Notes: generated by a model from the sequence alone, not told the origin. A DNA stretch of 64,000 bases from an uncultured Methanosarcinaceae archaeon (GCA_963721455.1 CAVRJG010000044.1:1-64000), one strand, 5' to 3'. Counted from the first letter of the stretch, positions 6,807 to 52,215 are shown. A program made the numbers and translations.

Positions 6807-7790
6807 ATGCAGACTTATCTTACACGGCCGTGACTTGATCGGCGACCTCGATTTCAGCAAAGAAGAAGTCGAAACCGTCATGGATGTGGCGTTCGATCTG
6901 AAGCGCAAGCGCGCTCTGAACGAACCGCACGCGTATCTGCGCGACAAGGTGCTGGCGATGCTGTTCTTCTTCAGCAGCACGCGCACGCGCGGCTCGTTTG
7001 AAGCGGGCATGGCCCAACTGGGCGGGCACGGCGCATTCATCGACAGCAAGACGACGCAGATTTCGCACGGCGACACGCCCAAGGAAATCGGCGAGATCTT
7101 CGGCCGCTACTTCGACGGCATCGCCATCCGCCACGTGGATTGGGGCATCGGCAACGGCTACCTCAACGCCGTCGCCAAAGCCTCGCGCGTGCCCGTGCTC
7201 AACATGCAGTGCGACATCTATCACCCCTTCCAATGTTTGGCCGACCTGATGACCATCATCGAGAAGAAGGGCCGCGATCTGCGCCGCAAGAAGATGGTGG
7301 TGTCGTGGGCGTATGCCGCGTCGTACCAGAAGCCGATGTCGGTGCCGCAGTCGCTGATTTTGCAGATGCCGCGCTTTGGCATGGACGTCGTGCTGGCGCA
7401 TCCGCCCGAGTTCAAGCTGATGCCGGAGATCATGGATCAGGCCCGCGAGCAGGCCACGCAAGTTCGGCACGGGCTTTGAAGTCGTCGACGACATGGACGC
7501 CGCCTTCAAGGATGCGGACATCATCTACGCCAAGTCGTGGGGCGCGATGGTACACACGCCGGATGTCGACGAAGGCGCGCAAGATCATCAAGAAGTACGA
7601 GAGCTGGATCACCGACGAGCGCCGCATGGGTCTCGCCAAGTCCGATGCGATCTACATGCACCCGCTGCCCGCCGATCGCAACATCGAAGTCACCGATGGC
7701 GTGATGGACGGTCCGCAGTCAGTCGTGTACGACGAAGCCGAAAACCGTCTGCACGCGCAGAAGGCCGTTATGGCCCTGACGATGAGTTAA
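6807..7790 (+). CDS. YgeW-like (knotted) carbamoyltransferase (several frameshifts)
   Basis: [38 protein letters not shown] (YgeW/AOTC-type loop), [16 protein letters not shown]. Confidence 0.8.
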
Positions 7791-7811
7791 GGAGATCTAC
7801 CATGGCCACCC

Positions 7812-8766
7812 ATGACCACTCCAAACAAAGTCGCCGTCGTCGCCGTCGGCGGCAACGCCTTGATCCTCGACAAAGCGCACGAAGATGTCGGTTCGCAGGT
7901 CAGCGCCGTCGAAGAGACATGCAAGCACATCGCCGACATGATCGCGCAGGGCTGGAACGTCGTCGTCACGCACGGCAACGGCCCGCAGGTCGGTTTCATT
8001 CTGCGCCGCAACGAACTGGCCTATCCCGAAGTTCACTCGACCCCGCTCGACGTGATCGGCGCGGATACGCAGGGCGCGATCGGCTACATGATCGCCCGTG
8101 CTCTGGATAATGAATTCAAGCGGCGCGGCATTCACCGTGACGTCGCCGCCGTCGTGACGCAGGTGCTGGTCGATCGCAACGATCCCGGCTTTAAGAATCC
8201 CACCAAAGGTATCGGCGGCTTCACGACGCAAGAAAAGGCCGAGATCTTCAAGAAGGAAGGCTGGATCGTCAAGGAAGATGCCGGGCGCGGCTGGCGACGC
8301 ATGATCGCCTCGCCCATCCCGCTGAAGATCGTGGAATTCGACGCGATCAAGAACCTGATCGACAACGGCTTCATTCTCGTCGGCGTGGGCGGCGGCGGCA
8401 TCCCCGTCATCGAAAACGAACAGGGCCAACTGCAAGGCGTGTTCGCCGTCATCGACAAAGATCGCGCCAGCAGCCTGCTTGCCGCGGAATTGAAGGCCGA
8501 TCTGCTGCTGATCTCGACCGCGGTCGAGAAAGTCGCGATCAACTTCAACAAACCCGATCAAAAGAATCTGGATCGAGATGACGTTGGCGAAGCGAAGCAG
8601 TACTACTAAAGAGGGACACTTCCTATCGGGCAGCATGGGGCCGAAGATCGAGGCCATCATCGCTTTCCTGGAAGCCAACCCCAACGGCCAGGGCTTGATC
8701 ACCGATCCGCCGCACATCGTCGACGCGCTGAACGGCAAGACCGGCACGTGGATTACGCAAAACTAA
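7812..8766 (+). CDS. arcC: Carbamate kinase (frameshift near 8580-8610)
   Basis: VAVGGNAL, THGNGPQVG, TQGAIGY, GRGWRR, GGGGIPV, VIDKD, GSMGPK. Confidence 0.92.
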
Positions 8767-8769
8767 TGC

Positions 8770-8830
8770 GTGACGAGTGACGAGTGAAAAGTGACGAGTG
8801 AGCGTTTCGGCTTTCACTCGTCACTCGTTA
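8770..8830. repeat. GTGACGA heptamer repeats with inverted copy (hairpin). Related copies at about 1189-1199, 10353-10403 and 15856-15882
   Basis: gtgacgagtgacgagtgaaaagtgacgagtga...ttcactcgtcactcgtta. Confidence 0.75.
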
Positions 8831-8864
8831 ATCGTCAGCCGTCATCAACACAAGGATACTTAAC

Positions 8865-10330
8865 ATGATCGATCTCACCATCCAACCCGATCGCCGCAAG
8901 CGCGCGATCCAGCGCGCGCGCGAGCGCAACATCATCATCCCCACCTACAAGCAGATGAAGAATCCCGGCGTTGATCCCCGACAAGGTCAAAACCGGTTTG
9001 AAGAAAGTCGGCCTGTGGGACGTGAACCCGCTCAACCTGTTCCGCATCAACTGGCACAACGAACCCGTGCCCAGCGGCGGCGGCGTTCGGCGGCGTGAAC
9101 TATCTGGAATTTCCGACCCGAATTGACGGGCGTGAACGCGCGCATCTTCGCGCCTCGTTGGCAAGTGGTTCCCCACCGGCGCGCACAAGGTCGGCGCGGC
9201 CTTCAGCTGTCTCGTGCCGCGACTGGTCACCGGGCAGTTCGACCCGACGACGCAGAAGGCCGTGTGGCCCAGCACCGGCAACTACTGCCGCGGCGGCGCG
9301 TACGACTCGGCGCTGCTGGCCTGCCAGTCGATCGCGATTCTGCCGGAAGGCATGAGCCGCGAGCGTTTCGAGTGGCTGTCCAAGGTCGCGGGCGAAGTCA
9401 TCGCCACGCCCGGCACCGAAAGCAACGTCAAGGAAATCTTCGACAAGTGCTGGGAACTGCGCCGCTCCGGCCAGGACCTGATGATCTTCAATCAGTTCGA
9501 AGAGTTCGGCAATTACCTGTGGCACTACGATGTCACCGGTCACGCGCTGGAAGAAGTGCTTGCAGAAGGCGCTGAAACCCGGCGAAACGCTGCGCGGCTC
9601 CGTGTTCACGACGGGCTCGGCGGGCACGATCGGGTCCGGCGACTACCTGAAGGAAGTCTTCCCGTACAGCAAACTCGGCGCCAGCGAAGCGCTGCAATGC
9701 CCGACGCTGCTGAACAACGGCTTCGGCTCGCACCGCATCGAAGGCATCGGCGACAAGCACGTGCCGTGGATTCACAACGTCAAGAACACCGACATGGTGG
9801 TGGCCGTTGACGACGAAGCGCCGATCCAGCTGATCCGCCTGTTCAACGAGCCGGAAGGCCAGAAGTATCTGGCGCAGATGGGCGTGTCCGAAGCGTCTGA
9901 TCAAGCCAGCTGCCGCTGCTGGGCATCTCCGGCATCGCCAACGTGCTGTCGGCCATCAAGATGGCCAAGTGGTACGAGTGGGGCGAAGGCGACGCGGTCA
10001 TCACCGTGCTGACCGACTCGATGGAACTGTACGGCAGCCGCCTGCGCGAACTGACCGCCGAGCGCGGCGAATACACCGCCCGCGATGCCGCCGTCTCGTA
10101 CCATCAATATCTGATGGGGCAGGACGTGGCCTACATGGAAGAACTCACCTATCCAGCCGCGCAAGCGCGTCCACAACCTGAAGTATTACACGTGGGTCGA
10201 GCAGCAGGGCAAGACCTATGACGAGATTCAGGCGCAGTGGTATCAGAAGGATTACTGGACCAGCGTCCACGGCCAGGCCGATGCGATCGATGCGTTGATC
10301 GAAGACTTCAACGCCGAGGTTGGTCTGTAG
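8865..10330 (+). CDS. Fold-type II PLP-dependent enzyme (threonine/cysteine synthase-like; multiple frameshifts)
   Basis: [13 protein letters not shown] (PLP lysine), [29 protein letters not shown] across several frames. Confidence 0.8.
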
Positions 10331-10413
10331 TCGTTTCGTGTTGCGAACTACCTAACGAGTGACGAGTAACGAGTGAATGACATTCACTCGTTACTCGTCA
10401 CTCAGCGTTTATC

Positions 10414-11328
10414 ATGCCGACACCTCGACACTCGCCCGCCACCCGCGTCTACGTCGTTCTGGCGATAGGCATTTTCTGCATTGCCTTCTCGGCTATCTTT
10501 GTCAAGTGGACACATTTGCCGGGCGTGACTTCCGGCTTCTATCGACTGGCCATCTCGACAGCAGTTCTGTCGATCCCGTTTCTGCGCCGACGGGTCGATC
10601 GGCCACCGCTGAGCCGTCGGGCGTTGACGATGGGTGCGCTGGGCGGCGTGTGGTTTAGCCTGGATGTGATCGCGTGGAATACGTCGCTGACGTACGCCTC
10701 CGCCGCGAGCGCCACTTTGCTCGGTAACACCTCATCAGTGATTGTGGCGCTGGCCGCGTGGTTGATCTTCCGTGAGAAGTTGCGCGGCAAATTCTGGCTG
10801 GGCCTGTTCGTCGCGGTCGCGGGCGTCCTGTTGGTGATGGGCGCCGATCTGATCACGATTCAGGACACACAGGCCGTCGCGGACACGCGCACCTTTGGCA
10901 ATTTGCTGGCTTTGCTCGGCGCGTTTTTCTATGCGGGCTATTTGTTGACCACTCAACACACCCGCGCTCATCTCGATACGCTCTCGTCATTGTTCTTCAT
11001 GTCGGCCGTCGGCAGCGTCATCTTGTTGGCGGTGAACGTCGTGCAAGGATTGCCCTTGACCGGTTTCGCGCCGCAGACGTGGCTGGCGCTGTTGGGATTG
11101 GCGCTGATCACGCACGTGGGCGGCTGGCTGGCGATCAACTACGCGCTGGGGCACATCCGCGCCTCGATCGTTTCGGTGACGCTCCTTGCCCAGCCCGTGC
11201 TGACCGCGCTCCTCTCTATTCCCCTGCTGGGCGAAGACTTGTTTCCGCTGCAGATCGTCGGCGGCGTTTTGGTGCTCGAGCGGCATCTACATCGTCAACC
11301 GCTACGGCCGATCGTAATCTCGAGCTAA
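10414..11328 (+). CDS. DMT/EamA-family transporter
   Basis: About 10 TM helices, two EamA-like halves, LIFREK, LAQPV. Confidence 0.85.
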   Translation: MPTPRHSPATRVYVVLAIGIFCIAFSAIFVKWTHLPGVTSGFYRLAISTAVLSIPFLRRRVDRPPLSRRALTMGALGGVWFSLDVIAWNTSLTYASAASATLLGNTSSVIVALAAWLIFREKLRGKFWLGLFVAVAGVLLVMGADLITIQDTQAVADTRTFGNLLALLGAFFYAGYLLTTQHTRAHLDTLSSLFFMSAVGSVILLAVNVVQGLPLTGFAPQTWLALLGLALITHVGGWLAINYALGHIRASIVSVTLLAQPVLTALLSIPLLGEDLFPLQIVGGVLVLERHLHRQPLRPIVISS

Positions 11329-11415
11329 TCGCACCGCGGTTTCACCGCCTCGACGATTCAGACTTTTCGATCCGGGTATGATACAATCGACAGCATCTTC
11401 GATCGGGTGATCGTC

Positions 11416-14619: not shown

Positions 14620-15294
14620 TCATCCAACCAATTTGTAACCGACGCCCGTCACAGTTTCGATCTGTGCTGTACTGTGACTGATCTTCTTGCGCAGGTGCGC
14701 CACGTGCACATCGACCGTGCGCGTCTGCCCCGCGAAGTCATACCCCCAGGCCAGTTCTAACAACTTCTCGCGACTCAACACAAAGCCTTTGTGCTCGGCG
14801 AGGCATAGCAAGCAATCGAACTCTTTCGTGCGCAGCTCGATCGGCTGACCGGCGACCGTGACTTCACGCCGCGCCGGATCGATCGCGAGATCGCCCAACC
14901 GATAGACCTTCGTCGGCGACGCGGTGCGATCGGAGCGGCGCAGGATCGCTTTCACCCGCGCCACCAGCTCGCGCGGATTGAAGGGCTTGGTCATGTAGTC
15001 GTCCGCGCCGATTTCGAGGCCGACGATCTTATCGATGTCGTCATCACGCGCCGTCAACATGATGATGGGCACATCACTAGTGGCACGGACGCGGCGGCAG
15101 ACTTCCCACCCATCGATCTCGGGCAACATTAGATCGAGCACCATCAGGGCCGGCGAATCGCTCTTGACACGCTCGAGCGCGGCTTTACCGGTGTAGGCGG
15201 CAATCACCTTGAAGCCGTCCTGTTCCAGATACAGCCGCGCCAACTCGACGATATTCTGCTCGTCGTCGACGACGAGAATGGTCTCTTTAGTCAT
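14620..15294 (-). CDS. OmpR/PhoB-family response regulator
   Basis: ILVVDDE, LDLMLP, GADDYMTKPF, RTVDVHVAHLRKK, GVGYK. Confidence 0.95.
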   Translation of the reverse strand: MTKETILVVDDEQNIVELARLYLEQDGFKVIAAYTGKAALERVKSDSPALMVLDLMLPEIDGWEVCRRVRATSDVPIIMLTARDDDIDKIVGLEIGADDYMTKPFNPRELVARVKAILRRSDRTASPTKVYRLGDLAIDPARREVTVAGQPIELRTKEFDCLLCLAEHKGFVLSREKLLELAWGYDFAGQTRTVDVHVAHLRKKISHSTAQIETVTGVGYKLVG

Positions 15295-43306: not shown

Positions 43307-44271
43307 GACCTCAATGTAGTTCCTGAAACCTGAAAGTACTTTTCAAGCAGAGGCCCAACAATTCCCTCCAGTTTTTCCTTCTCCTTAAGTGCTTCAACCC
43401 AGGAAACGGGTATGGCTTCAATTCCCAGCCTGGCTCCAAGAATGCCCCCTGCCACACTTGCAACCGAGTCAGAGTCCCCGGTAATATTCACTGCGGTCTG
43501 CACTGCTTTTTTGTAGTCTTTCGGATAACGCAAAGTGCAGAAGTATGCAAGGGCAAAGGTTTCATCCGCATACCAGCCCTGCCCGAGTTTCTTCAGCGCC
43601 TCTCCATCCCCCATGCCACTGTGAGAGATTTCATAAGAAACTTCCAGGGCGTCAGTGAATTCCTGAGAGATTCCTTCGGTTACCTCAAGAAGAGGTTCAA
43701 GCATTTTCTCGGGTTCCACTCCATCAAGGGCCAGTTTCACTGCATATGCCCCTGCAATAGACGCAGCGTCTGAAACCGGATGAGAGTGAGTAATTCTGCC
43801 TGAAATCAAAGCAACTTTAACCAGTTTTTGAGGGTCATTCCGATAAATAAAACCGAGGATTCCAGCCCGCATGAGGCTTCCGCAGGTTTTAGAGCTGATT
43901 CCGGATTTGCTCCAGTGAATCCCATCCTTAAGACTCAGGGCTGCCCCTCTGGTAGTTGCTCCTGCACCCAGGTCAGGCTCGTCCAGCCAGAGAATCAGTT
44001 CCTCTGCTATCTTGCCCATAAGCTCGGGAAGTTCAAGTTCTGCTCCTCGAAGCAGGCCTCTGGCAAGTACAAGCATCAACTGGGTATCATCAGTCCAGGG
44101 AGAATCAGGCGGGAGTTCAAGGATTCCTTTTTCTCCGTATTTCTTTTTGATCTGTTCAAGAGTCAGATGCTCTACAGGGCGCCCGAGGGCATCCGCACAT
44201 GCGGTGCCGAAGAGGTAGCCGCGAAGCTTGCTTTCAAGATCCGGAGTAGCTTGGATATTTCCTGTACTCAT
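43303..44271 (-). CDS. ADP-ribosylglycohydrolase family protein
   Basis: DALG, WTDDT, GSLMR, THSH, GDSDSVASVAG. Confidence 0.92.
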   Translation of the reverse strand: MSTGNIQATPDLESKLRGYLFGTACADALGRPVEHLTLEQIKKKYGEKGILELPPDSPWTDDTQLMLVLARGLLRGAELELPELMGKIAEELILWLDEPDLGAGATTRGAALSLKDGIHWSKSGISSKTCGSLMRAGILGFIYRNDPQKLVKVALISGRITHSHPVSDAASIAGAYAVKLALDGVEPEKMLEPLLEVTEGISQEFTDALEVSYEISHSGMGDGEALKKLGQGWYADETFALAYFCTLRYPKDYKKAVQTAVNITGDSDSVASVAGGILGARLGIEAIPVSWVEALKEKEKLEGIVGPLLEKYFQVSGTTLRS

Positions 44272-44550
44272 TGTTTCAATTCCATAACTCAATGAGAAAT
44301 GCAATTATTCAGGTATAATTAAGTTTACTCATATAGGGTTGAATTTTAGAATGATATTAAATTATTGATTAGCAGTAGAGGAAGACCAATAAAGTAGATT
44401 GGAGAGAGTTTAAAAAGAAAAGTTCAATAGAAAGGATCTTTAGCTGGATAGAGTCATGTAAAAAAGTATTTTCTAAATATGAAGTCAAAGACAGATCATA
44501 CATAGGAGTTGTAATCTTAGGGCTCGTAACGAAATAACCTAAGTAACACA

Positions 44551-45995
44551 CATTGGTCATCGGTTAAGAACTTACTTCAATCTACCAATAGTGTTTTTCA
44601 GTTCATCTTTTCATTCTAACCATTCTTCTCTGAACCTTTCTCTGTTTACATGTGGATCCAATGCTTGACTTTCGTACACACTCATCACTGTTTCAAAAGT
44701 TCTTTCAATTCCACATCTATGCAGAATCACTGTCAATAAATCTGATGCATTTTCAGCAAATATTATGCTCCATCTCTCTTGAGTATATCGAACCATTTTT
44801 TCAGGATGAGCCGTATTGTTCTTTACAAGAGAATAAATTCTTCTGCTAACGATTAATGTCAACATTGCTGTCCATATTAGAGCCTCAATTACCTGCACAT
44901 TCTTTGTATCCAGAACGTCAAGCGCGTATTTGCTTTTTAACTCCTTGAAAAGCAGCTCTATGTCCCATCTTGCTCCATATAATTTTGCAATGTCTTTTGC
45001 ACTCAAAACATCTTTCTGAATATTTGTAATGTATATGTGGTGCTTTTCATCTTCATCATTATATACCGCAACAAGACGTACACACATCTCATCCTGTTTT
45101 TGCTTGCCTTTGTATGCTCTTCTTTTAAACTTTATTTTCACAACAGCATCAAGATCTTTTCCTGAAAGTTGCTTAATACACTCACTAACAGGTTTTCCAG
45201 TGAACTCTTTGCTTTTTGTCTTAGAAAGTCCCTCTTCAACAGAAACAAGAATAGGATCCATATTCTTCCTAATTCTTGAGACAAAATATCCTCCATTTTC
45301 CTCAACTCTTGCAAACATTTGGCTTTTGTAAAAACCAAGATCAACAAGAAGAATACGGTCTTTGATCCAGGGCCCTATTTTCAATGTTTTCATTTCAGCT
45401 GTTTTTTCAGAGTACAGAGCAACTGTTTTAGGTCCATTAGCAACTGCACTTACCATAACTCCCACTTTTACTCCAGCAGCTACTGTTCTTGCTCTTGCTG
45501 CCGGAAACTTGTCTGATAAAGAGGAGTGAAGACGAACAATTGTGCTGTCCTGAATGAGAACATCCTGGAAGTTTTCGAGTTTTTTACTAAGTTTTCTACC
45601 GGGTTCTTTTGCAAGTTCTTCTATGCCATGAATAACACACTGATGAAGAAACTCCACAAGTTCTGGAGTGAATCTATAGTACCAGCTGCTGTCGCTTAGG
45701 GTCTTATTTGATTCTTTTTCATATTCTCTTTTCAAACTGGCAAGTGTACGCTGCAAGCGTACACCAAAACTGAGAGTTAAAACCCAAAAGATGATGACAG
45801 GGTCAATTTTACGCTCACGTACTATGAGACCAGTTTCTTTGGCAGTTTGCCTTAACCACTCTTCGGGAAACATTTCCCGAAGAGAGTCTTCAAGAGTAGG
45901 TGGGGGATGAGGAGACATATATACACTAATATTTAAATTATTATTATAAAAACGCATGTAGAAGTGATTATCTAATGCTTAACCGATGACGCATG
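44551..45995 (-). mobile_element. Complete IS4-family (ISH8-like) insertion sequence
   Basis: 18-bp terminal IRs CATTGGTCATCGGTTAAG / CTTAACCGATGACGCATG; 10-bp target duplication AAGTAACACA (44541-50, 45996-46005). Confidence 0.92.
44611..45918 (-). CDS. IS4-family DDE transposase
   Basis: QDST, VDLGF, YGARWDIELLFKELK (YREK signature). Confidence 0.93.
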   Translation of the reverse strand: MSPHPPPTLEDSLREMFPEEWLRQTAKETGLIVRERKIDPVIIFWVLTLSFGVRLQRTLASLKREYEKESNKTLSDSSWYYRFTPELVEFLHQCVIHGIEELAKEPGRKLSKKLENFQDVLIQDSTIVRLHSSLSDKFPAARARTVAAGVKVGVMVSAVANGPKTVALYSEKTAEMKTLKIGPWIKDRILLVDLGFYKSQMFARVEENGGYFVSRIRKNMDPILVSVEEGLSKTKSKEFTGKPVSECIKQLSGKDLDAVVKIKFKRRAYKGKQKQDEMCVRLVAVYNDEDEKHHIYITNIQKDVLSAKDIAKLYGARWDIELLFKELKSKYALDVLDTKNVQVIEALIWTAMLTLIVSRRIYSLVKNNTAHPEKMVRYTQERWSIIFAENASDLLTVILHRCGIERTFETVMSVYESQALDPHVNRERFREEWLE

Positions 45996-46170
45996 AAGTA
46001 ACACATTATTATTTTGGAGCAAAATCGATGGGAATGCTTATGAAAATGGCAAAGTACAGTGTAAAAATGGGCTTAAGTTATTTCGCGGTGGGTACTTAGC
46101 AGCAATAATAAGGTTAAATCAAGTTTTGGGACGAGCTAAGTAGATAAACACCCGATGTTAACTGAGGAAT

Positions 46171-46239
46171 TTACGCTTTACTCAATTCTTGCTGTACTGA
46201 CATTCTCATAATAGGTTTTGCCTGCGTTGGTAATTTCAT
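46171..46239 (-). pseudogene. RiPP precursor remnant P10
   Basis: MKLPTQAKPIMR leader, then a frameshift and stop; shifted frame VSTARIE* resembles the P6/P9 leaders. Confidence 0.7.
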
Positions 46240-46479
46240 AACAATTTCTCCTAGTTTTGACTCCTGGTCACCATGAGGCACCCAGATTTTTGGCTGCCCA
46301 AAAAATGAGTGTTTAGATAGCTTGCAGTTGGTCCGGTCGTAGCTATTCATGGCCATAAGCAGTCAATTTCATCAAATTTACCAAATAATCTTGTACATAT
46401 ATCATGCTTTTTAGCATGGACTTCTGCCCCAGATTACATCGTATTAAATCACAAGTTGTCTGTACTGCAGAATTCGATA

Positions 46480-46644
46480 TTAGAGAATCCCGCACAGAGC
46501 CTGGCAAACAGCCTTTGCAGTAGAATTTGGTATTAGGTTGCAACTTGTTTCGCAAAGACCGCCGCCAGACTGACTGACTCTTGCCTCGATACTCGCCGTA
46601 CTGCTCTTTCTCATAACAGATTTTGCTTGTTTTGGTAATTTCAT
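46480..46644 (-). CDS. RiPP precursor P9 (54 aa, CX3C-X11-CX3C core)
   Basis: MKLPKQAKSVMRKSSTASIEARVSQS-GGGLCETSCNLIPNSTAKAVCQALCGIL*; GGAGG RBS. Confidence 0.85.
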   Translation of the reverse strand: MKLPKQAKSVMRKSSTASIEARVSQSGGGLCETSCNLIPNSTAKAVCQALCGIL

Positions 46645-46945
46645 AAATACTTCCTCCGTATTTCTTTTCGTTTATTTTCCGTAAAGGGAGCTATTCTGCC
46701 GCCATGAAAATCCATATTTTGAACTGCGAAAAAATGAGGATTTGAATAGCTTGCAACCGGACAAGTCGTAGCTATCCCTCACCTCTAGCAGTCCATTTCA
46801 TATTTATGCTAAATAATCAGTGGCGGATTTCATGCTAAAAAACACGAACTTATACCATTCACTTCCTTGCATTAGGACCAGCCGCAAGTGAGTAATTTTC
46901 TGTTAATTTTTTAACTGATCCGGCTGCAAACCGCTAAGTATTGCC

Positions 46946-47122
46946 TTATGCACACACACCTTGACAATGTCCTTGAATGCAGAAACCAATGCATGTATGT
47001 TTACATCCACAACTTTGATCCGATGGAATGATGCTCCCAGTTGTAGTAACTTCTCGGCTATGCGTCGCACTTCTTATAACAGGTCTTGCTTGCTTTGGTA
47101 ATTTCCTAACAAACTCCTCCAT
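46946..47122 (-). CDS. RiPP precursor P8 (6-Cys; usual ATG changed to AGG, in-frame ATG 5 codons upstream)
   Basis: MEEFV-RKLPKQARPVIRSATHSREVTTTGSIIPS-DQSCGCKHTCIGFCIQGHCQGVCA*. Confidence 0.75.
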   Translation of the reverse strand: MEEFVRKLPKQARPVIRSATHSREVTTTGSIIPSDQSCGCKHTCIGFCIQGHCQGVCA

Positions 47123-47132
47123 ATCTCATCAT

Positions 47133-47312
47133 TTAGATGACCTTACAGCCGCCACGGCAATAAAATCCACCAATACAATTGCCCGGAGGACAATAAGTTC
47201 CTAATAAACAGCCACAGCTTAAGGGCAATTTAGAGGACGCGATAAGTCCAATTGTTTGCCCGTTATGCGCCGCAGTCCTCATAATAGGTTTTGCTTGTTT
47301 AGGCAGTTTCAT
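47133..47312 (-). CDS. RiPP precursor P7 (59 aa, 6-Cys)
   Basis: MKLPKQAKPIMRTAAHNGQTIGLIASS-KLPLSCGCLLGTYCPPGNCIGGFYCRGGCKVI*; AGGAGG RBS. Confidence 0.87.
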   Translation of the reverse strand: MKLPKQAKPIMRTAAHNGQTIGLIASSKLPLSCGCLLGTYCPPGNCIGGFYCRGGCKVI

Positions 47313-47592
47313 AAAGACTTCCTCCTTAATTTTGACTTCTTGCCGCCATGAGGCACCCATATTTTGGGCTACTCAAAAAAATATTTAGATAGCTTGCAAC
47401 CGGACCGGTAGTAGTTATCCATAACTTAGGCAGTCTATTTCATCATATTTGCCAAATAATCAGTCGCGTATACCCGTGCTAAAAAGCACGAACTGCCACC
47501 ACTCACTTTGCTTGCATTAGGACCAGCCGCAAGTGTAGTCATATTCTGTAAATCCTTTAGCTGATCCGGCATGCAAGCCGTTAAGTTGTGCC

Positions 47593-47751
47593 TTAATACC
47601 CTGATTTGCACATCGCCAAGCACGTACTCCACGCAACTCCTCGCAGTTTGTTGCAGCGCTCTTGGCAATCATCAGACTGACCGACTCCGGCCCCTATTTT
47701 TGCCGTACTGGCCTTTCTCATAACAGGTTTTGCCCGTGTTGGTAGTCTCAT
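47593..47751 (-). CDS. RiPP precursor P6 (52 aa, CX3C-X10-CX3C core)
   Basis: MRLPTRAKPVMRKASTAKIGAGVGQS-DDCQERCNKLRGVAWSTCLAMCKSGY*. Confidence 0.85.
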   Translation of the reverse strand: MRLPTRAKPVMRKASTAKIGAGVGQSDDCQERCNKLRGVAWSTCLAMCKSGY

Positions 47752-47766
47752 AAAAATTCCTCTTTA

Positions 47767-47886
47767 GTGCCCGCAACGAAATAACCTATGCAACTTATTA
47801 TTTATTGAAACTTTGATTAGCTATCTTGATCTTGAAAATCAAGATATCCAATCAAAAATATGCAGATGTTGTTTTGTGACAAGTCC
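47767..47886. mobile_element. 120-bp MITE (same family as 44520) just upstream of the P6 RBS
   Basis: GTGCCCGCAACGAAATAACCTATGC ... GCAGATGTTGTTTTGTGACAAGTCC; TTA on both sides. Confidence 0.65.
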
Positions 47887-48083
47887 TTAGTTCTGGCTTC
47901 TGACCGCCATAAAACGTCCACATTTTGGGCTGCCCAAAAAATGAGGGCTTGGATAGCTTTTAGCCTGTCTGGCCGCACCCTATCCATAACTTCTAAGCAG
48001 CGCTCCCCTCAAAATAAGGTGCAGGTTCCGTGCCCCCAAGGCCGAACATCTGCCCCCATCCTACGTTTGTTTAGCTCGGCTTA

Positions 48084-48269
48084 TCAGGTACCTACGACCT
48101 TGCAGCCACCAGGGCATCTAAGCCCTACACAACCACCCGGACAATATGTACCCACAATTCCTGGCAAACAGCACGTGTCTATGAGTCCCGAGGGTGTGAT
48201 GCTCACAATGGTTTGCCCGCTGTACACCGCATTCCTCATAACAGGTCTTGCTTGCTTTGGTAATTTCAT
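48084..48269 (-). CDS. RiPP precursor P5 (61 aa, 6-Cys)
   Basis: MKLPKQARPVMRNAVYSGQTIVSITPS-GLIDTCCLPGIVGTYCPGGCVGLRCPGGCKVVGT*. Confidence 0.87.
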   Translation of the reverse strand: MKLPKQARPVMRNAVYSGQTIVSITPSGLIDTCCLPGIVGTYCPGGCVGLRCPGGCKVVGT

Positions 48270-48284
48270 GACAATTTCCTCCTA

Positions 48285-48387
48285 GTGCATCGATTCCAAA
48301 ATAAGTCCCTTGTTTAGAGGGAAATTAGTTAATCAACAGACAAATCAAAAACCAAGGTTTTATGAACATACTTTGGAATCGCAGCAC
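48285..48387. mobile_element. 103-bp MITE with TA duplication just upstream of the P5 RBS
   Basis: IRs GTGCATCGATTCCAAAATA / TACTTTGGAATCGCAGCAC; TA flanks. Confidence 0.7.
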
Positions 48388-48566
48388 TAGTTCTGACTTC
48401 TGGCCGCCATGAGGCAACCATATTTTTGGCTTCCCAATAAATGAGGTTTTGGATAGCTTGCAGCCGGTCTGGCCTCAACCCATCCATAACTTCTAAGCAG
48501 TGTTCTTCCTCAAAATGAGGGGGTTCCATGCCCCCAAGTCCGAACACCGGTCTCATGCTACGATGT

Positions 48567-48752
48567 TTATCTCGGCGGTACGAGGGGCACACAAGCAAGG
48601 CATTTTCCATTAAAACATAAACCTGGGGGACAATACGTACCCAATAAACAGCCACAATTATAGGGCCAATTCGAGGGCATGATATGCCCACCTGTTTGCC
48701 TGCTATGCGCCACATTCCGAAGAACAGGTTTTGCTTGCTTTGGTAATTTCAT
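48567..48752 (-). CDS. RiPP precursor P4 (61 aa, 6-Cys)
   Basis: MKLPKQAKPVLRNVAHSRQTGGHIMPS-NWPYNCGCLLGTYCPPGLCFNGKCLACVPLVPPR*. Confidence 0.87.
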   Translation of the reverse strand: MKLPKQAKPVLRNVAHSRQTGGHIMPSNWPYNCGCLLGTYCPPGLCFNGKCLACVPLVPPR

Positions 48753-48779
48753 AAAGATGTCCTCCATCTCTCTTTTCTT

Positions 48780-48959
48780 TCAGATGACCTTACAGCCGCC
48801 ACGGCAATAAAATCCACCAATACAATTGCCAGGAGGACAATACGTACCCAATAAACAGCCACAACTTAGGGCCAATTCCGAGAGCATGATATGTCCAATT
48901 GTTTGCCCACTATGAGCTGCATTCCTCAGAACAGGTTTTGCTTGTTTTGGTAATTTCAT
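48780..48959 (-). CDS. RiPP precursor P3 (59 aa, 6-Cys)
   Basis: MKLPKQAKPVLRNAAHSGQTIGHIMLS-ELALSCGCLLGTYCPPGNCIGGFYCRGGCKVI*. Confidence 0.87.
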   Translation of the reverse strand: MKLPKQAKPVLRNAAHSGQTIGHIMLSELALSCGCLLGTYCPPGNCIGGFYCRGGCKVI

Positions 48960-49264
48960 AGAAATTTCTCCTTAGTTCTGACTTCTGGTTGACATGAAGC
49001 ACCCACATTTTTGCCACCCAAAAAAGTGAGTATTTGGATAGCTTGCAACCGGATAGGTCTTAGCCATCCATCACCTCTAAGCAGCTTACTTAAATTATAG
49101 GCATCTCATACATCCGACATTCTTTGTTTTTTGTGCGTACCAGTGCCTATGCAGGCGTTGGGGCAGCCACACGATGAAGAAGTGACTCTTGCCTCATTTC
49201 CGTTGTATCGACCTTTCGGATAACACACTTGTGACATACCCAACGTGAACCATTAAGTAGTGCC

Positions 49265-49432
49265 TTATATACACACACCTTGACAATGTCCGCTAATGCA
49301 TAGACCAATGCACTTACTCTTACAACCACAATACAATGGCTCATCTGATGGAATGATGCCCCCAGTTGTAGTAATTTCTCGGCTATACATCGCATTTCTC
49401 ATAACAGGTTTTGCTTGCTTTGGTAATTTCAT
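49265..49432 (-). CDS. RiPP precursor P2 (55 aa, 6-Cys)
   Basis: MKLPKQAKPVMRNAMYSREITTTGGIIPS-DEPLYCGCKSKCIGLCISGHCQGVCI*. Confidence 0.87.
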   Translation of the reverse strand: MKLPKQAKPVMRNAMYSREITTTGGIIPSDEPLYCGCKSKCIGLCISGHCQGVCI

Positions 49433-49562
49433 AACAATTTCCTCCGAGTTCTGACTTCTGGTCACCATAAAGCGTCCACATTTTAGGCGGCCCAAAAAAT
49501 GAGAGCTTGGATAGCTTGCAACCGGTCTGGACGCAACCCATCCATCACTTTAAGCTGCTTCC

Positions 49563-49739
49563 TCAAATTGGTAAACAAACACCAGCGCACTGCTTTCCAA
49601 CAAATGGTATATTTATACAAGCACCTATACAATTTGTACCAGATGGGCAGTTGCAATCTGAGGGGGTGATGCCCCCAGTGATTTGTCCGCTGTGCACCGC
49701 ATTTCTCATAACAGGTTTGGTTTGCTTTGGTAATTTCAT
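49563..49739 (-). CDS. RiPP precursor P1 (58 aa, 6-Cys)
   Basis: MKLPKQTKPVMRNAVHSGQITGGITPS-DCNCPSGTNCIGACINIPFVGKQCAGVCLPI*; GGAGG RBS. Confidence 0.87.
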   Translation of the reverse strand: MKLPKQTKPVMRNAVHSGQITGGITPSDCNCPSGTNCIGACINIPFVGKQCAGVCLPI

Positions 49740-49933
49740 AACAAATTCCTCCGTGTCTCTTTTCGTTTATTTCCCGTAAAGGGAGCTATTCTATCGCCAC
49801 ACAGGCGACGATTTGGAACAAATTGTCCCTGCTCATTATCACCGTCCTCATCATAGTGACAATGATTGCAAATTCGTGAGTGCCACCAAAGGTGACGAAA
49901 TCCTTTGGTGGCACGTAATCAAATAGCTCCGGC

Positions 49934-52121
49934 TTAGTACACCGACCAGAACCGTACCTTTCCAACTGTAACAGGCACCACGTCACTCACATCGATGGTA
50001 AAACGATACACCTTTCTGGCGACAGTAAGACGATTGGCCGGGTCGAAGAACGTCAGCTTCACATCCCAGCAATCCGAATCTGGCCTGCAGAGCAGGGCTT
50101 CGTTCCGTCTCAATATTATCCAGCGTCAGGTTCTCGATAGCCATTTGCTTAAAGATGGACGCCGGCTGGTACGCGTTTGTCCCGGCAAAATTCATTGCCC
50201 GCTCCTGTGAAGCCCGGCCCAGGTTCATTAACTCGTAATACACCCTCTCCGAGAAGTTACGAACACCTGCTTCCACTTGTGCTTTCATCTCTAAGTGTGC
50301 CGCCAGTTCTATTTCATCGTTACTTTCAGGCAACGGGCCGATCACAGCAAGTACCACTTCATGTACCAAGGCGTCTGTAGACCAGCTGCACATCCCCCTC
50401 AACTCCGGAATAATGACTGGCACCACCTGACCCGAAAGGAGTTTTACTTTTCCTGCAATGACCCCTGGAATTGACACTCTCTCAACCCCTTCGGTCTGTT
50501 GTTCCTTCAGAAATTTGCTTAGCTGCTTGTAAGTGATTGAGGCAAAACTGCCTATAGGACGGATTGCATAAACAGGATTACTCTCAATCTCGAGAGTCCA
50601 TATAAGGGACTCCGCATACTCGGGATTTTCCTCAAGGTGGGTCAGCAGTTGAGCTGGGTCGTCTGGGTTAGGCCAATCGCCCTCCATGCTCTGGACAAAA
50701 GCATCTCGCCTCGCCTCGCTCCCGAAGTCGTAACCAAGTGTGCCAAGGGCATATACCAGGGACTGTTTTCCACACGTAGAACACGCAGATGGAGGGACTT
50801 CCGAGGGCATGACAGACGGTGTAGTTGCCTCGTTTGGCATTGTTGATTCCGCCGCTTGTACATCAGATGCATGTACATGGGACCCTGTAATTCCAGTACC
50901 ATCACTTGTTTGGTCGTTAAGCTCGTTCATTTCCTCAGTCTTTGTCTGCTTTTTTGGACAACCACATGTTTTGTCTATAACTTCAGCCATATTCTTCTCC
51001 TGTATCTGGTTTTTCGTTTGTTCGTTCTTCTCTTTATCTATCGACTTTAGCTCAATAGAATCAGGATTTTCCAGAGCTTTCATTGCGTCCAAAGTAAAAT
51101 TCTGAGCCGAGGGTGTTGTTATCTCTGGATTATGTGTTGTAAACTCCGCATTCAGCACGCCAAGAACAGGCAGTCGTTTGGAAGATTCCACCAGTCCTAT
51201 GCTTGCATTTCCCTGAATTTGTTGTACCGAATTATTACTATCAGTCACAGCTAGCTGTTTCTTCGTGACAAGATTATATGCCCCTCCAATGTTGAGACGA
51301 CCTCTTAGATGGCGAGAACAATCTAAACCTTCGGATGGAAAACAAGGGTGAGCACTCTGGAGAATTGCTTCCCGCACGGTGAAAGGGTCAGTTTTGTCTC
51401 CTCTTTGTATCTGGATGCTCAACAACAAAGCAACAATACCAGAAACGATCGGAGTGGCAAAGCTGGTACCGCTTTTGGTGGTAACACCGCCACCAGGTAC
51501 AGCTCCCAGTAATTTTTCACCAAGTGCGAGAATACCATTATTTTGGTACGCCTGCCCCCAATTACTAAAGTTGAGAGGTAATCCCTGAGCATCCATTGCC
51601 CCTACCGCGAGGGTAGAGGAAATGGCGGCTGGCACATGGAGGCATTGACATCCGTCATTTCCCACAGCTGCAATGATTAAAACGCCGTTTTTGGCGCAGA
51701 GACTAACAGCCTTGTCAAGTAGAGGGTGAGGGTCGCCAGAGGAAACAAGTTGACCGCCACTGATGTTTATTACATGAGCTCCTTGTTCAACAGCTTGTGT
51801 GATGGCGTGAGCGAGATCAATCTGAGAACAGGGCGTAATTGAATCATCAGGCCCATCCGCAAAAACAGGAATGATGAGTCCACGACAGCCGGGCGAAATA
51901 CCATGGATAGGGCTGTCATGTTGGCCAAAGATTAAGCTGGCAACATGAGTTCCGTGGTGCGCACTTGGCCCATCCTCGGTAACGCCTGAAACTAAAGTCT
52001 CTAATTGGGTTATTTTGGCTTTATCGAAACAGGGATGATTTAGGTCGACCGGACCATCAAGGACTGCAATGCAAATATTGGCATCTCCTTCAGTCTGCTC
52101 CATAATCTCTGTTGCCTTCAT
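49934..52121 (-). CDS. PatA/PatG-family cyanobactin-maturation-type subtilisin protease (S8 + linker + PatG-type C-terminal domain), +1 frameshift near 50093
   Basis: IAVLDGPVDLNHPCF (Asp), HGTHVASLIFGQ (His), SGTSFATP (Ser), CSQIDLA, LVYALGTLGYDFGSEARRD. The shifted frame restores SP.CRPDSDCWDVKLTFFDP...VYRFTIDVSDVVPVTVGKVRFWSVY*. Confidence 0.9.
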
Positions 52122-52215
52122 GATAAACACCTAAAATTTTTACATTGACTGTGTAAATCTCACATCAATTTTTTGCTGTAGATTGTACTCAAACAGAATA
52201 CGCAGATAAAAATAG

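Follow-up and report, generated by a model that had tools for sequence, protein, structure and literature searches.

Why does one short spacer element recur between the genes of an archaeal peptide-precursor array, and does it act on the gene before it or on the gene after it? The array lies in a 64-kb stretch of DNA (64,000 nucleotides, hereafter the window) from an uncultured member of the Methanosarcinaceae. The window is archaeal, not bacterial: its host is a Methanosarcina-type archaeon, and it is syntenic with Methanosarcina sp. T3.

We begin with the genes. Ten small precursor genes (46171..49739, minus strand), with conserved leaders of the MKLPKQAKPVMR type and cysteine-rich cores, lie downstream of a PatA/PatG-family cyanobactin maturation protease (49934..52130, minus strand). 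The protease matches TIGR03895 with 595 and 708 bits (cut-off 421). It has a frameshift near 50105-50115; the main ORF is at 49983-52130 and the C-terminal end is in the ORF 49934-50113. Numbered in order of transcription, counting from the protease, the precursor genes (all on the minus strand) are P1 (49563-49739), P2 (49265-49432), P3 (48780-48959), P4 (48567-48752), P5 (48084-48269), P6 (47593-47751), P7 (47133-47312), P8 (46946-47107), P9 (46480-46644), and P10 (46171-46239). P8 has AGG at the position of the ATG and P10 is truncated to 22 codons. With these defects, the frameshifted protease, an IS4-type DDE transposase (44611-45957), and two insertions (see below), the window's locus looks decayed.

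The locus resembles cyanobactin loci (a PatA/PatG protease with a PatE-like precursor) in its TIGR03895 protease and in the leader-like N-terminus of the precursors, which has weak, sub-threshold matches to cyanobactin leader models. It differs in having separate precursor genes rather than multi-core cassettes and in its archaeal host. Also, domain scans of the ORFs flanking the array found no gene for a second protease/macrocyclase, a heterocyclase, or a prenyltransferase. The P1 leader (49740..49933, minus strand) is 83% identical to that of T3 and 72.5% identical to that of a Methanosarcinales MAG, and it includes a hairpin (49880-49914) with compensatory changes between the genomes. Because there is no run of five or more T within 200 nt after the protease, nor anywhere in the P1 leader, the sequence suggests that the protease and P1 are probably one transcript.

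The element itself is about 110-120 nt long and makes up the 3' half, which is the conserved half, of the spacer from one precursor unit to the next. Seven diverged copies lie in the window, all on the minus strand (the sense strand for the precursors), and their alignment has a mean column identity of 79%. They precede P2 (49446..49566; model core 49472-49551; T6 at 49494-49499; start 11 nt past the P1 stop), P3 (48973..49093; core 48999-49077; T6 at 49020-49025), P5 (48388..48508; core 48414-48493; the only copy with a broken T-run, TTTATT), P6 (47888..48008; core 47914-47993; T6 at 47936-47941), P7 (47324..47444; core 47353-47428; T7 at 47375-47381), P9 (46681..46801; core 46708-46785; T6 at 46729-46734), and P10 (46252..46372; core 46278-46356; T6 at 46300-46305). 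P1 lacks the element, as do P4 (27 nt after P3) and P8 (25 nt after P7). A covariance model of the seven copies (R1) scores them at 73-86 bits (E = 8e-13 to 2e-15). The seven copies described in the initial annotation are where it placed them.

That annotation also described a MITE between the element and the ribosome-binding site (RBS) of both P5 and P6. The P5 insertion (48282..48390, 109 bp, no strand assigned) is MITE-like, with 25-nt terminal inverted repeats. P6 also has an insertion before it, of about 130 bp (47762..47890, no strand assigned), but this one lacks terminal repeats. Its sequence matches part of a plasmid from Methanosarcina sp. Kolksee at 83% identity, and in a search of a plasmid collection with the whole array, this insertion alone gave a match. 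The insert described before P9 is present too. It is about 45 nt long (46654..46700, minus strand), is a copy of part of the P1 leader (93% identity to 49749-49792), and takes the place of the 3' end of that element copy.

Is the element mobile, or a recombination site? The initial annotation had likened the repeats and small genes to a gene-cassette array. An integron also has one imperfect palindrome per small-gene unit, in a tandem array, and the sequence indicates that this array is clearly recombinogenic: cores and flanks have been shuffled between units (repeat families D2, D4, D10, and D11). But several observations largely refute an integron-like attC site or a MITE, and we consider either one very improbable. 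First, a Pfam scan of 47 window ORFs (mainly those of at least 150 aa) found no integrase or recombinase domain except for the IS4-type transposase. Second, the consensus of the attC core is GTTRRRY, which the arm of the element (GTTGCAA) does not fit. Third, the element has no target-site duplications or terminal repeats of its own. Fourth, each gene has its own Shine-Dalgarno sequence (SD) in a fixed register, with the protease upstream, which does not follow the logic of promoterless cassettes. Instead, the copies are homologous spacers, and the precursor units look like ordinary tandem duplicates.

The element is also specific to the arrays, in agreement with the view that it is not a dispersed MITE. 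When both strands of the 64-kb window were searched with R1, there were no further significant matches (the next were antisense self-matches with E of at least 0.05 and one match with E = 0.81). Outside of arrays, we found no copies in 115 kb, nor did any of 72,556 plasmids have one; all 11 of the copies known from three genomes (see below) lie inside arrays, in a fixed register. A 15-nt motif from the 3' arm of its first hairpin (H1), allowing up to three mismatches, occurs six times in the array and is absent upstream of the protease and from the rest of the window, apart from one match with three mismatches at 14943. Shuffled sequences contained 1.64 matches on average, and none of 100 reached seven. 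A check against Rfam 15 (44000-52000, both strands, E up to 10) gave nothing at or near a gathering score: the best match, mir-587, had 23.1 bits against a gathering score of 80 (E = 0.27), which is the level of chance.

We then looked for the element in other genomes. R1, which was built from the window copies alone, found three copies in Methanosarcina sp. T3 and one in the Methanosarcinales MAG (E = 5e-11), at the same type of locus, for a total of 11 copies. A protein search with P1 found only two small metagenome proteins, for which there is no surrounding DNA. A peptide-pattern scan of genome contigs gave nine stretches, of which four were confirmed, at three loci; the window's own genome was not among these. 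Searching the plasmid collection with the protease gave 13 records, all bacterial. In the best locus, from Gloeocapsa, this protease is followed by a single cysteine-rich precursor, which is unannotated and has a leader of the same type; we found no element there. Nor did we find one at the locus of an "Acidobacteriota" MAG (protease and one precursor). Since the element is kept in two related genomes, we conclude from the sequences that it is a real spacer and probably a regulatory one.

Could it be functionless spacer DNA that was copied with the precursors by tandem duplication, and that remains similar because of recency or gene conversion? Within the window, core identity between paralogs is 0.74; between the window and T3 it is also 0.74, which is no better than the 4-fold degenerate sites of the protease (0.73). 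These numbers, the decay of the window's locus, and the weak covariation (see below) are what passive copying would give. However, core identity to the Methanosarcinales MAG copy is 0.61-0.69, while the 4-fold sites of the protease are saturated (0.42-0.45), so on this comparison the element diverged less than neutral sequence. Homology extends about another 100 nt upstream of the element in three window copies and in all three T3 copies, but only the element of about 110 nt is common to all of the spacers, whose remaining parts belong to unrelated classes. Also, the potential to form hairpins is maintained through different pairing registers, and one T3 copy (10713-10788) has a perfect 15-bp H1 because of changes on both arms. 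Passive copying therefore seems unlikely. A tree of the 11 copies had no well-supported inner branches (0 of 8), so neither orthology nor concerted evolution can be inferred from it.

We next considered the structure. RNAalifold predicts both of the stems named in the initial annotation. H1 is formed by GGAUAGCU...AGCUAUCC, with a variable inner stem. The second hairpin (H2), UUUUGGG...CCCAAAA, can be extended outward to about 13 pairs (CACUCA-UUUUUUGGG / CCCAAAA-UGGGUG), and its 5' arm is the U6-7 tract. A third and weaker hairpin (H3) follows, and then the SD; H3 and the SD region are homologous to part of the P1 leader. The pairing potential is retained despite sequence drift: standard pairs make up 87.3% of 292 cells across the 11 copies (the structure was derived from the same sequences), and this falls to 26-47% if the partners are slid by 1-3 columns. 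The covariation that should accompany conserved stems is marginal, though. Both sides changed in only five pairs (eight cells), and for five measures of covariation, 14, 142, 11, 314, and 19 of 500 shuffles reached the observed values; both results come from just 11 sequences. The RNAalifold covariation terms are +0.39 and -0.11. The covariation test thus does not prove the structure.

Other evidence favors a strand-specific structure in RNA. Folding z-scores of the core are below -2 in 8 of 11 copies, and 9 of 11 copies fold better on the sense strand than on the antisense strand. There are also 35 G-U pairs as compared to 14 A-C pairs. (The G+T richness of the sense strand could partly account for this excess.) The reading frames through H1 differ between copies, and one stops after three codons, so we rejected a small coding ORF. 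Near the SD, 6 of the 7 window copies have an intact mini-ORF of 7 codons, as against none of the four T3 and MAG copies.

Conservation could instead reflect a signal in the DNA. The near-invariant GGTTGCAAGCTATCC arm, with its palindromic TTGCAA, would be a transcription-factor site, and the A and T tracts downstream would be a weak activator-dependent TATA box or initiator, with one promoter per unit. Sequence is indeed conserved in the H1 3' arm and in both tracts (T and A), and most changes are one-sided and in the 5' arm. The geometry fits as well: the T-run, or AAAAT-N-TGG, about 50 nt before the ATG would put the start site 20-30 nt before the ATG, and the spacers, with 130-330 nt and T-runs, look like gaps between separate transcription units. 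Nevertheless, we judge a DNA-level module to be improbable. An archaeal promoter has a BRE and a TATA box some 25 nt before the start site. The tRNA genes of the window are preceded by CGAAA(A/G)G and TATATA (BRE/TATA), and we found no such signal in the element, which has only the T-run and AAAAT-N-TGG. The lack of the arm motif upstream of the protease, the G-U excess, and the better folding of the sense strand also argue against it. Finally, a T3 copy that precedes a membrane protein gene (11278-11356) leaves no room for a start site.

What, then, is the T-run? In archaea, the termination signal is a U-tract of 4-7 U, including in Methanosarcina mazei, and one U4 tract terminates more weakly than two do (PMC8716108). 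That paper gives a run of at least 4-7 U, on the sense strand and after a gene, as the mark of such a terminator, and 10 of the 11 copies have T6-T7 on the sense strand. Runs of at least six T are otherwise infrequent, with six in 24,027 nt of the coding sense strand of the window, as compared to seven in the 3.8-kb array, of which six are in element copies. (Runs of T5-T7 also follow several other genes of the window.) The gap between the end of H1 and the U-tract is 9-10 nt, which does not match the bacterial type of intrinsic terminator, with a GC-rich hairpin and a T-run within 0-2 nt, and no element copy was flagged in a scan for those. Scans for sigma-70 promoters and hairpin terminators gave counts that were not above shuffles (10 versus 8.9 and 4 versus 3.8), with none in the element; the bacterial promoter model is the wrong one for an archaeon.

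The U-tract raises the question of which gene the element serves, and here the evidence points both ways. Of the 9 copies that precede a precursor, 6 have their core 38-40 nt from the downstream ATG, and insertions displace the other three. The distance to the upstream stop, in contrast, can be anything between -11 and 283 nt. In this way the element is linked to the downstream gene, and it could be purely a structured 5' UTR that controls the stability or translation of the downstream precursor's mRNA and does nothing for the upstream gene. Conservation covers the element, SD, and leader-coding block as a single unit, and the homology of the H3/SD region to the P1 leader also fits. Furthermore, long structured 5' UTRs are common in the Methanosarcinaceae and are linked to mRNA stability and to masking of the RBS (PMC5378194); a transcript that begins before H1 would have a structured leader of 120-150 nt, which is typical of the family.

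But the element does not go with downstream precursors consistently. The first precursor has a different leader, lacking H1 and H2, in all three genomes, and the second precursor of the Methanosarcinales MAG, like P4 and P8, has no element at all. Conversely, T3 and the MAG each have a final copy that comes after the final precursor, and the gene beyond it is an unrelated one: in T3 it encodes a 180-aa membrane protein without a Pfam match, and in the MAG a metallophosphoesterase. The initial annotation's placement of the element before precursor genes thus holds for the seven window copies and fails for these two. The T3 copy ends right after H2, just 3 nt short of the ATG. Also, the insertions of 109 and 130 bp between element and RBS are tolerated, and transcription would be expected to stop at a U6 tract within a 5' UTR. 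RNAalifold does predict pairing between CUCAUGG and the start-codon region, but the covariation term is unfavorable (+1.7), and we rejected these long-range stems, which have no covariation. Overall, a pure 5' leader is possible but rather doubtful.

The reading we favor, which we hold tentatively and at somewhat less than even confidence, is that the element is cis-acting punctuation between cistrons: H1 and the U-tract act on the upstream precursor's message, and the rest serves as a leader for the next cistron. First, all 11 copies lie downstream of a precursor unit, including those that follow the last precursors, and the first precursor, which has no precursor before it, never has H1/H2. 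Second, the T-run is nearly always intact and is enriched in the array, in line with the literature on U-tract terminators. Third, the pairing, the folding of the sense strand, and the conservation to the Methanosarcinales MAG support a functional RNA. We infer that the U-tract would act as an archaeal termination signal with H1 just upstream, and would end, attenuate, or 3'-stabilize the preceding message. In RNA that is read through or re-initiated, the A-tract would pair with the U-tract to form H2, and the rest of the element would be a 5' leader for the next cistron. The element would have spread along with the genes by tandem duplication. A role in cis at the RNA level, whether as a leader or in processing or stability, was proposed in the initial annotation and is among the live explanations.

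Several caveats apply to intercistronic punctuation. Besides the gap of 9-10 nt, the marginal covariation, the fixed distance to the downstream ATG, and the lack of excess conservation between the window and T3, nothing about a plain terminator accounts for the near-invariant 3' arm of H1 or for the invariance of the A-tract and AAAAT-N-TGG. Also, with seven terminators in series, the distal genes would be starved of transcription unless each spacer had a promoter, and we saw no BRE/TATA of the kind that precedes the tRNA genes.

There is also a more elaborate version of this idea. The element might be an archaeal termination riboregulator, in which aCPSF1 reads the U-tract only in its single-stranded form, pairing with the A-tract in H2 hides it, and the H1 arm docks a dedicated RNA-binding or processing factor. 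We consider this quite unlikely.

How does the element compare to known signals? Stem-loops that act as attenuators or stabilizers after RiPP structural genes, and other intercistronic hairpins, are found in bacterial operons. There and here, a hairpin lies between a small, highly expressed precursor gene and the next gene, and partial termination or differential decay would be expected to set the stoichiometry. However, the bacterial hairpins are single and upstream of the enzymes, while the element is archaeal, occurs seven times in one array, leaves 9-10 nt between its hairpin and the U-tract, and comes after the protease. It also resembles the oligo-U terminators that function with aCPSF1 in archaea (PMC8716108 and PMC7237163): 6-7 U follow each unit on its sense strand, a spacer has several U-rich signals, and there is some folding potential upstream of the U-tract. 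In M. mazei, similarly, terminators can follow one another in series, the median length of the 3' UTR is 85 nt, and the sequence before termination sites has some potential to fold (PMC7237163). Archaeal terminators are not known to form families with a conserved sequence, whereas the element, for which termination is only putative, also has a hairpin arm that is conserved, an A-tract that can pair with its U-tract, and a fixed spacing to the next start codon.

Cis-acting RNA signals that set transcript boundaries or stoichiometry in archaea are poorly catalogued, and conserved, family-like cases are rare. This one is compact (a core of about 80 nt), occurs up to seven times per locus, and is present in Methanosarcina sp. 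T3, which is in culture and has a complete genome, so termination, read-through, and processing can be measured directly. The locus, in which methanogenic archaea pair a cyanobactin-type protease with an expanding set of cysteine-rich precursors, is apparently undescribed: a full-text literature search gave no account of this combination among the matches listed. If the element is merely a terminator and a leader, then it is ordinary gene punctuation within an unusual gene family. If it is a riboregulator, then one signal could switch a hypervariable library of cysteine-rich peptides from "first gene only" to "all genes," and this would be a case of attenuation or antitermination in a methanogen.

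Ten small precursor genes (P1 to P10, numbered in transcription order from the protease on, in agreement with the initial annotation) lie on the minus strand of the window at 46171-49739. All ten open with a MKLPKQAKPVMR-type leader and close with a variable, cysteine-rich core. The array is preceded, in the direction of transcription, by a 715-amino-acid ORF that belongs to the PatA/PatG cyanobactin maturation protease family (NCBIfam TIGR03895, 595 bits against a cut-off of 421) and matches Peptidase_S8, PatG_D, and PatG_C in Pfam. Pfam scans of the ORFs flanking the array found no further cyanobactin-type enzyme domains. A peptide-pattern scan with one genome per species gave nine stretches, four of them confirmed, and three loci. 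A PatA/PatG-type protease followed by cysteine-rich precursors with an MKLP(K/V)Q..P..R leader occurs in Methanosarcina-type archaea (the window, 46171-52130; L003, from Methanosarcina sp. T3, 7651-11360; and L002, from a Methanosarcinales MAG, 7274-10280), in a MAG labelled Acidobacteriota (L001, 1-1344), and on a Gloeocapsa plasmid (L004, 4896-7169), where the precursor gene is unannotated. Two precursors accompany the protease in the Methanosarcinales MAG, and one does so in the "Acidobacteriota" locus. At the level of listings, we found no published description of this pairing.

The window is syntenic with the T3 locus, which lies at about 212.2-232.3 kb of NZ_CP195120.1, at about 75% DNA identity (BLAST against the loci from the scan). 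The synteny takes in the protease, the array, and the genes on its far side. Towards its right end the window also has A-type ATP synthase genes, HypF, eIF-6, and DUF1699. The host is an archaeon, so archaeal transcription logic applies (BRE/TATA promoters and oligo-U terminators). (Composition changes abruptly at about 22 kb: positions 1-22000 have a GC content of 59-61% and bacterial-type genes such as MurJ, GntR, an OmpR-type regulator, and an M23 peptidase, and positions 22000-64000 have a GC content of 34-50% and archaeal genes. Possible causes are a chimeric assembly, the joining of two contigs, or a large foreign island.)

As the initial annotation described, a hairpin-forming element stands before most of the precursors, namely P2, P3, P5, P6, P7, P9, and P10. 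A repeat search found its central 48 nt in seven copies, the next 54 nt in six, and 118 nt in four (repeat families D7, D6, and D3), and the seven 121-nt copies align with a mean column identity of 79%. (The labels in the element alignment are reversed: upP9, upP8, upP6, upP5, upP4, upP2, and upP1 are the copies before P2, P3, P5, P6, P7, P9, and P10, respectively.) P1 has a different leader, of 194 nt, while P4 begins 27 nt after P3 and P8 begins 25 nt after P7. Within the window, the spacers have only the element's roughly 110 nt in common; their upstream parts fall into unrelated classes. The intervening sequences that had been described before P5, P6, and P9 are real. The insertion before P5 is 109 bp with 25-nt terminal inverted repeats, the insertion before P6 (47762-47890) is about 130 bp without terminal repeats, and the segment before P9 duplicates part of the P1 leader at 93% identity. 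Over 130 nt, the P6 insertion shares 83% identity with an unannotated part of a Methanosarcina sp. Kolksee plasmid (NZ_CP009523.1, 44689-44818), so it is a dispersed short element of Methanosarcina, and presumably mobile.

Of the three precursors in T3, the second and the third are each preceded by the element; another copy follows the last precursor, directly before an unrelated 180-amino-acid membrane protein. The Methanosarcinales MAG has a single copy, which overlaps the stop codon of the last precursor; a metallophosphoesterase gene begins 33 nt further downstream. A covariance model built from all 11 copies (R1) recovers exactly these, at 70-89 bits, from both strands of 115,488 nt; another 14 matches listed up to an E of 10 are either antisense self-matches or due to chance. 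A model built from the seven window copies only (R2) matches the T3 copies (E of 3e-23 to 1e-18) and the MAG copy (E of 5e-11), with no match in the "Acidobacteriota" or Gloeocapsa loci. No Rfam family matched the element. The initial annotation had also raised a recombination site within a gene-cassette array. We reject both an integron-like array and a MITE, because there is no integrase in the 47 ORFs scanned, there are no dispersed copies in the 115,488 nt or in a plasmid collection, and the element itself lacks both terminal repeats and target duplications.

All 11 copies come after a precursor unit (-11 to 283 nt from its stop codon) and nine of the 11 lie before a precursor, so the element is a trailer as well as a leader. 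A role for the downstream gene is favoured by its constant spacing from the next ATG: the core (the 79-nt or so of the model that holds the first two hairpins) ends 38-40 nt from the ATG in six of these nine copies, and the other three carry insertions. Three observations point to a role for the upstream gene. In the two genomes whose array end is intact, the element is kept after the last precursor; in all three genomes it is missing from the first precursor; and there is no run of five or more T between the protease and P1. Given this evidence on the two sides, we think it possible but rather unlikely that the element is purely the 5' leader of the downstream gene. In Methanosarcinaceae, long 5' UTRs are described as common and as linked to mRNA stability (PMC5378194).

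A T6-T7 run is present in 10 of the 11 copies. There are six runs of T6 or longer in 24,027 nt of the window's coding sense strand, and seven in the 3.8-kb array, six of them within element copies. T5-T7 runs also follow several other window genes. Archaeal terminators, including those of M. mazei, are described as tracts of 4-7 U that do not require a hairpin; aCPSF1 binds these tracts, and termination is weaker at one U4 tract than at two (PMC8716108). For M. mazei, multiple consecutive terminators are reported, 3' UTRs have a median length of 85 nt, and the RNA upstream of termination sites has some potential to fold, which is not essential (PMC7237163).

RNAalifold predicts three hairpins from the seven window copies (H1, H2, and H3, 5' to 3' on the sense RNA). 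H1 forms in all 11 copies when these are folded singly, with varying inner registers. One type carries AGCUACGAC in its 5' arm, with a 1x2 internal loop, another has GGGUUGCG and pairs continuously but for one mismatch, and one T3 copy has a perfect 15-bp stem with changes on both arms. The 5' arm of H2 is the U-tract, and H2 can extend outward to about 13 pairs (CACUCA with UGGGUG or UGAGUG). In a model-guided alignment, 87.3% of 292 cells are paired, versus 26-47% if the partners are slid by 1-3 columns. The observed percentage paired was reached by 14 of 500 shuffles, the number of doubly changed cells by 11, the covariation score by 19, the number of pairs changed on both sides by 142, and the number of further pair types by 314. 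Since the alignment was fitted to the structure, and unconstrained alignments often give such values, covariation is suggestive, not demonstrated. The earlier claim that the stems persist despite drift is borne out by the pairing, but the covariation controls are marginal.

The 79-nt cores have folding z-scores below -2 in eight of 11 cases, and in nine of 11 the sense strand folds more stably than its complement. The 121-nt versions have z-scores between -0.58 and -3.40, and in three of seven at most 1 of 200 shuffles matches. The consensus pairs include 35 G-U versus 14 A-C, which mildly favours structure at the RNA level, with the caveat that the sense strand is also G+T-rich. We consider it improbable that the element is instead a DNA-level factor site combined with a weak promoter; nothing resembling the CGAAA(A/G)G + TATATA that precedes the window's tRNA genes was seen for the distal precursor genes.

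Between the window and T3, identity is 0.74 in the core and 0.73 at four-fold degenerate sites of the adjacent protease, so this comparison shows no excess conservation of the core. (Paralogues of the core within the window are also 0.74 identical, and none of eight inner branches in a tree of the copies is well supported.) A passive hitch-hiker could look like this. Against the MAG, however, the protease's four-fold sites are saturated (0.42-0.45), while the core remains 0.69 (window) or 0.61 (T3) identical, which argues for purifying selection on the core over a longer span, and we judge mere hitch-hiking quite unlikely. A flanking housekeeping-type gene has a four-fold-site identity of only 0.52, so the peptide locus may have been exchanged more recently than its surroundings.

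The spacers have other features. A 13-bp hairpin directly follows the protease stop (window 49880-49914, minus strand; L003 about 9826-9860), with multi-base compensatory changes (CCACCAAAGG/CCTTTGGTGG in the window versus CCACCCTAGG/CCTAGGGTGG in T3) and a further variant in the MAG. It covaries better than the element itself does. As a whole, the 194-nt P1 leader shares 83% identity with T3 and 72.5% with the MAG. Another small hairpin, CGUGCU-UUUU-AGCACG, occurs some 100 nt upstream of the element in three spacers of the window (46403-46418, 46830-46846, and 47475-47491, minus strand) and all three T3 spacers (L003 about 10232-10250, 10648-10665, and 11213-11230); one copy has a paired stem change (CAUGCU/AGCAUG) and an A-rich instead of a U-rich loop. 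A seven-codon mini-ORF, M-x-x-R-S-Q-N-stop, sits at the 3' end of the element (for instance at 47320-47345 and 48395-48420), and its end falls on the Shine-Dalgarno sequence of the next precursor. The stop is intact in five of seven window copies, and a sixth keeps the seven codons and runs in frame into P2. Differences in codons 4-7 are all synonymous, at the third position. None of the four T3 and MAG copies has the mini-ORF. We reject a coding role for the element because reading frames differ among its copies.

The array seems to be decaying in the window genome, as suggested by AGG in place of the start ATG of P8 (47105-47122; an in-frame ATG upstream would add five residues), a stop after 22 codons in P10 (46171-46239), where homology to T3 ends (about 46181), an insertion sequence 175 nt beyond P10 (44551-45995, with an IS4-type DDE transposase and 18-nt inverted repeats), and the two spacer insertions. 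The protease gene is frameshifted at about 50105-50115, some 60 codons short of its end (ORFs 49983-52130 and 49934-50113), and the conserved C-terminus continues in a different frame. Its NCBIfam match ends at profile position 555 of 606, and that of the T3 protease reaches 605. Either a pseudogene or a sequencing error could explain this.

We tentatively read the element as putative intercistronic punctuation. This reading leaves unexplained why the 3' arm of H1 and the AAAAT-N-TGG motif are near-invariant in sequence, and where the promoters of the distal genes are. If the element is punctuation, H1 and the U-tract would attenuate, end, or stabilise the message of the upstream precursor, and the remainder (the A-tract arm of H2, H3, and the Shine-Dalgarno sequence) would be the leader of the next cistron.
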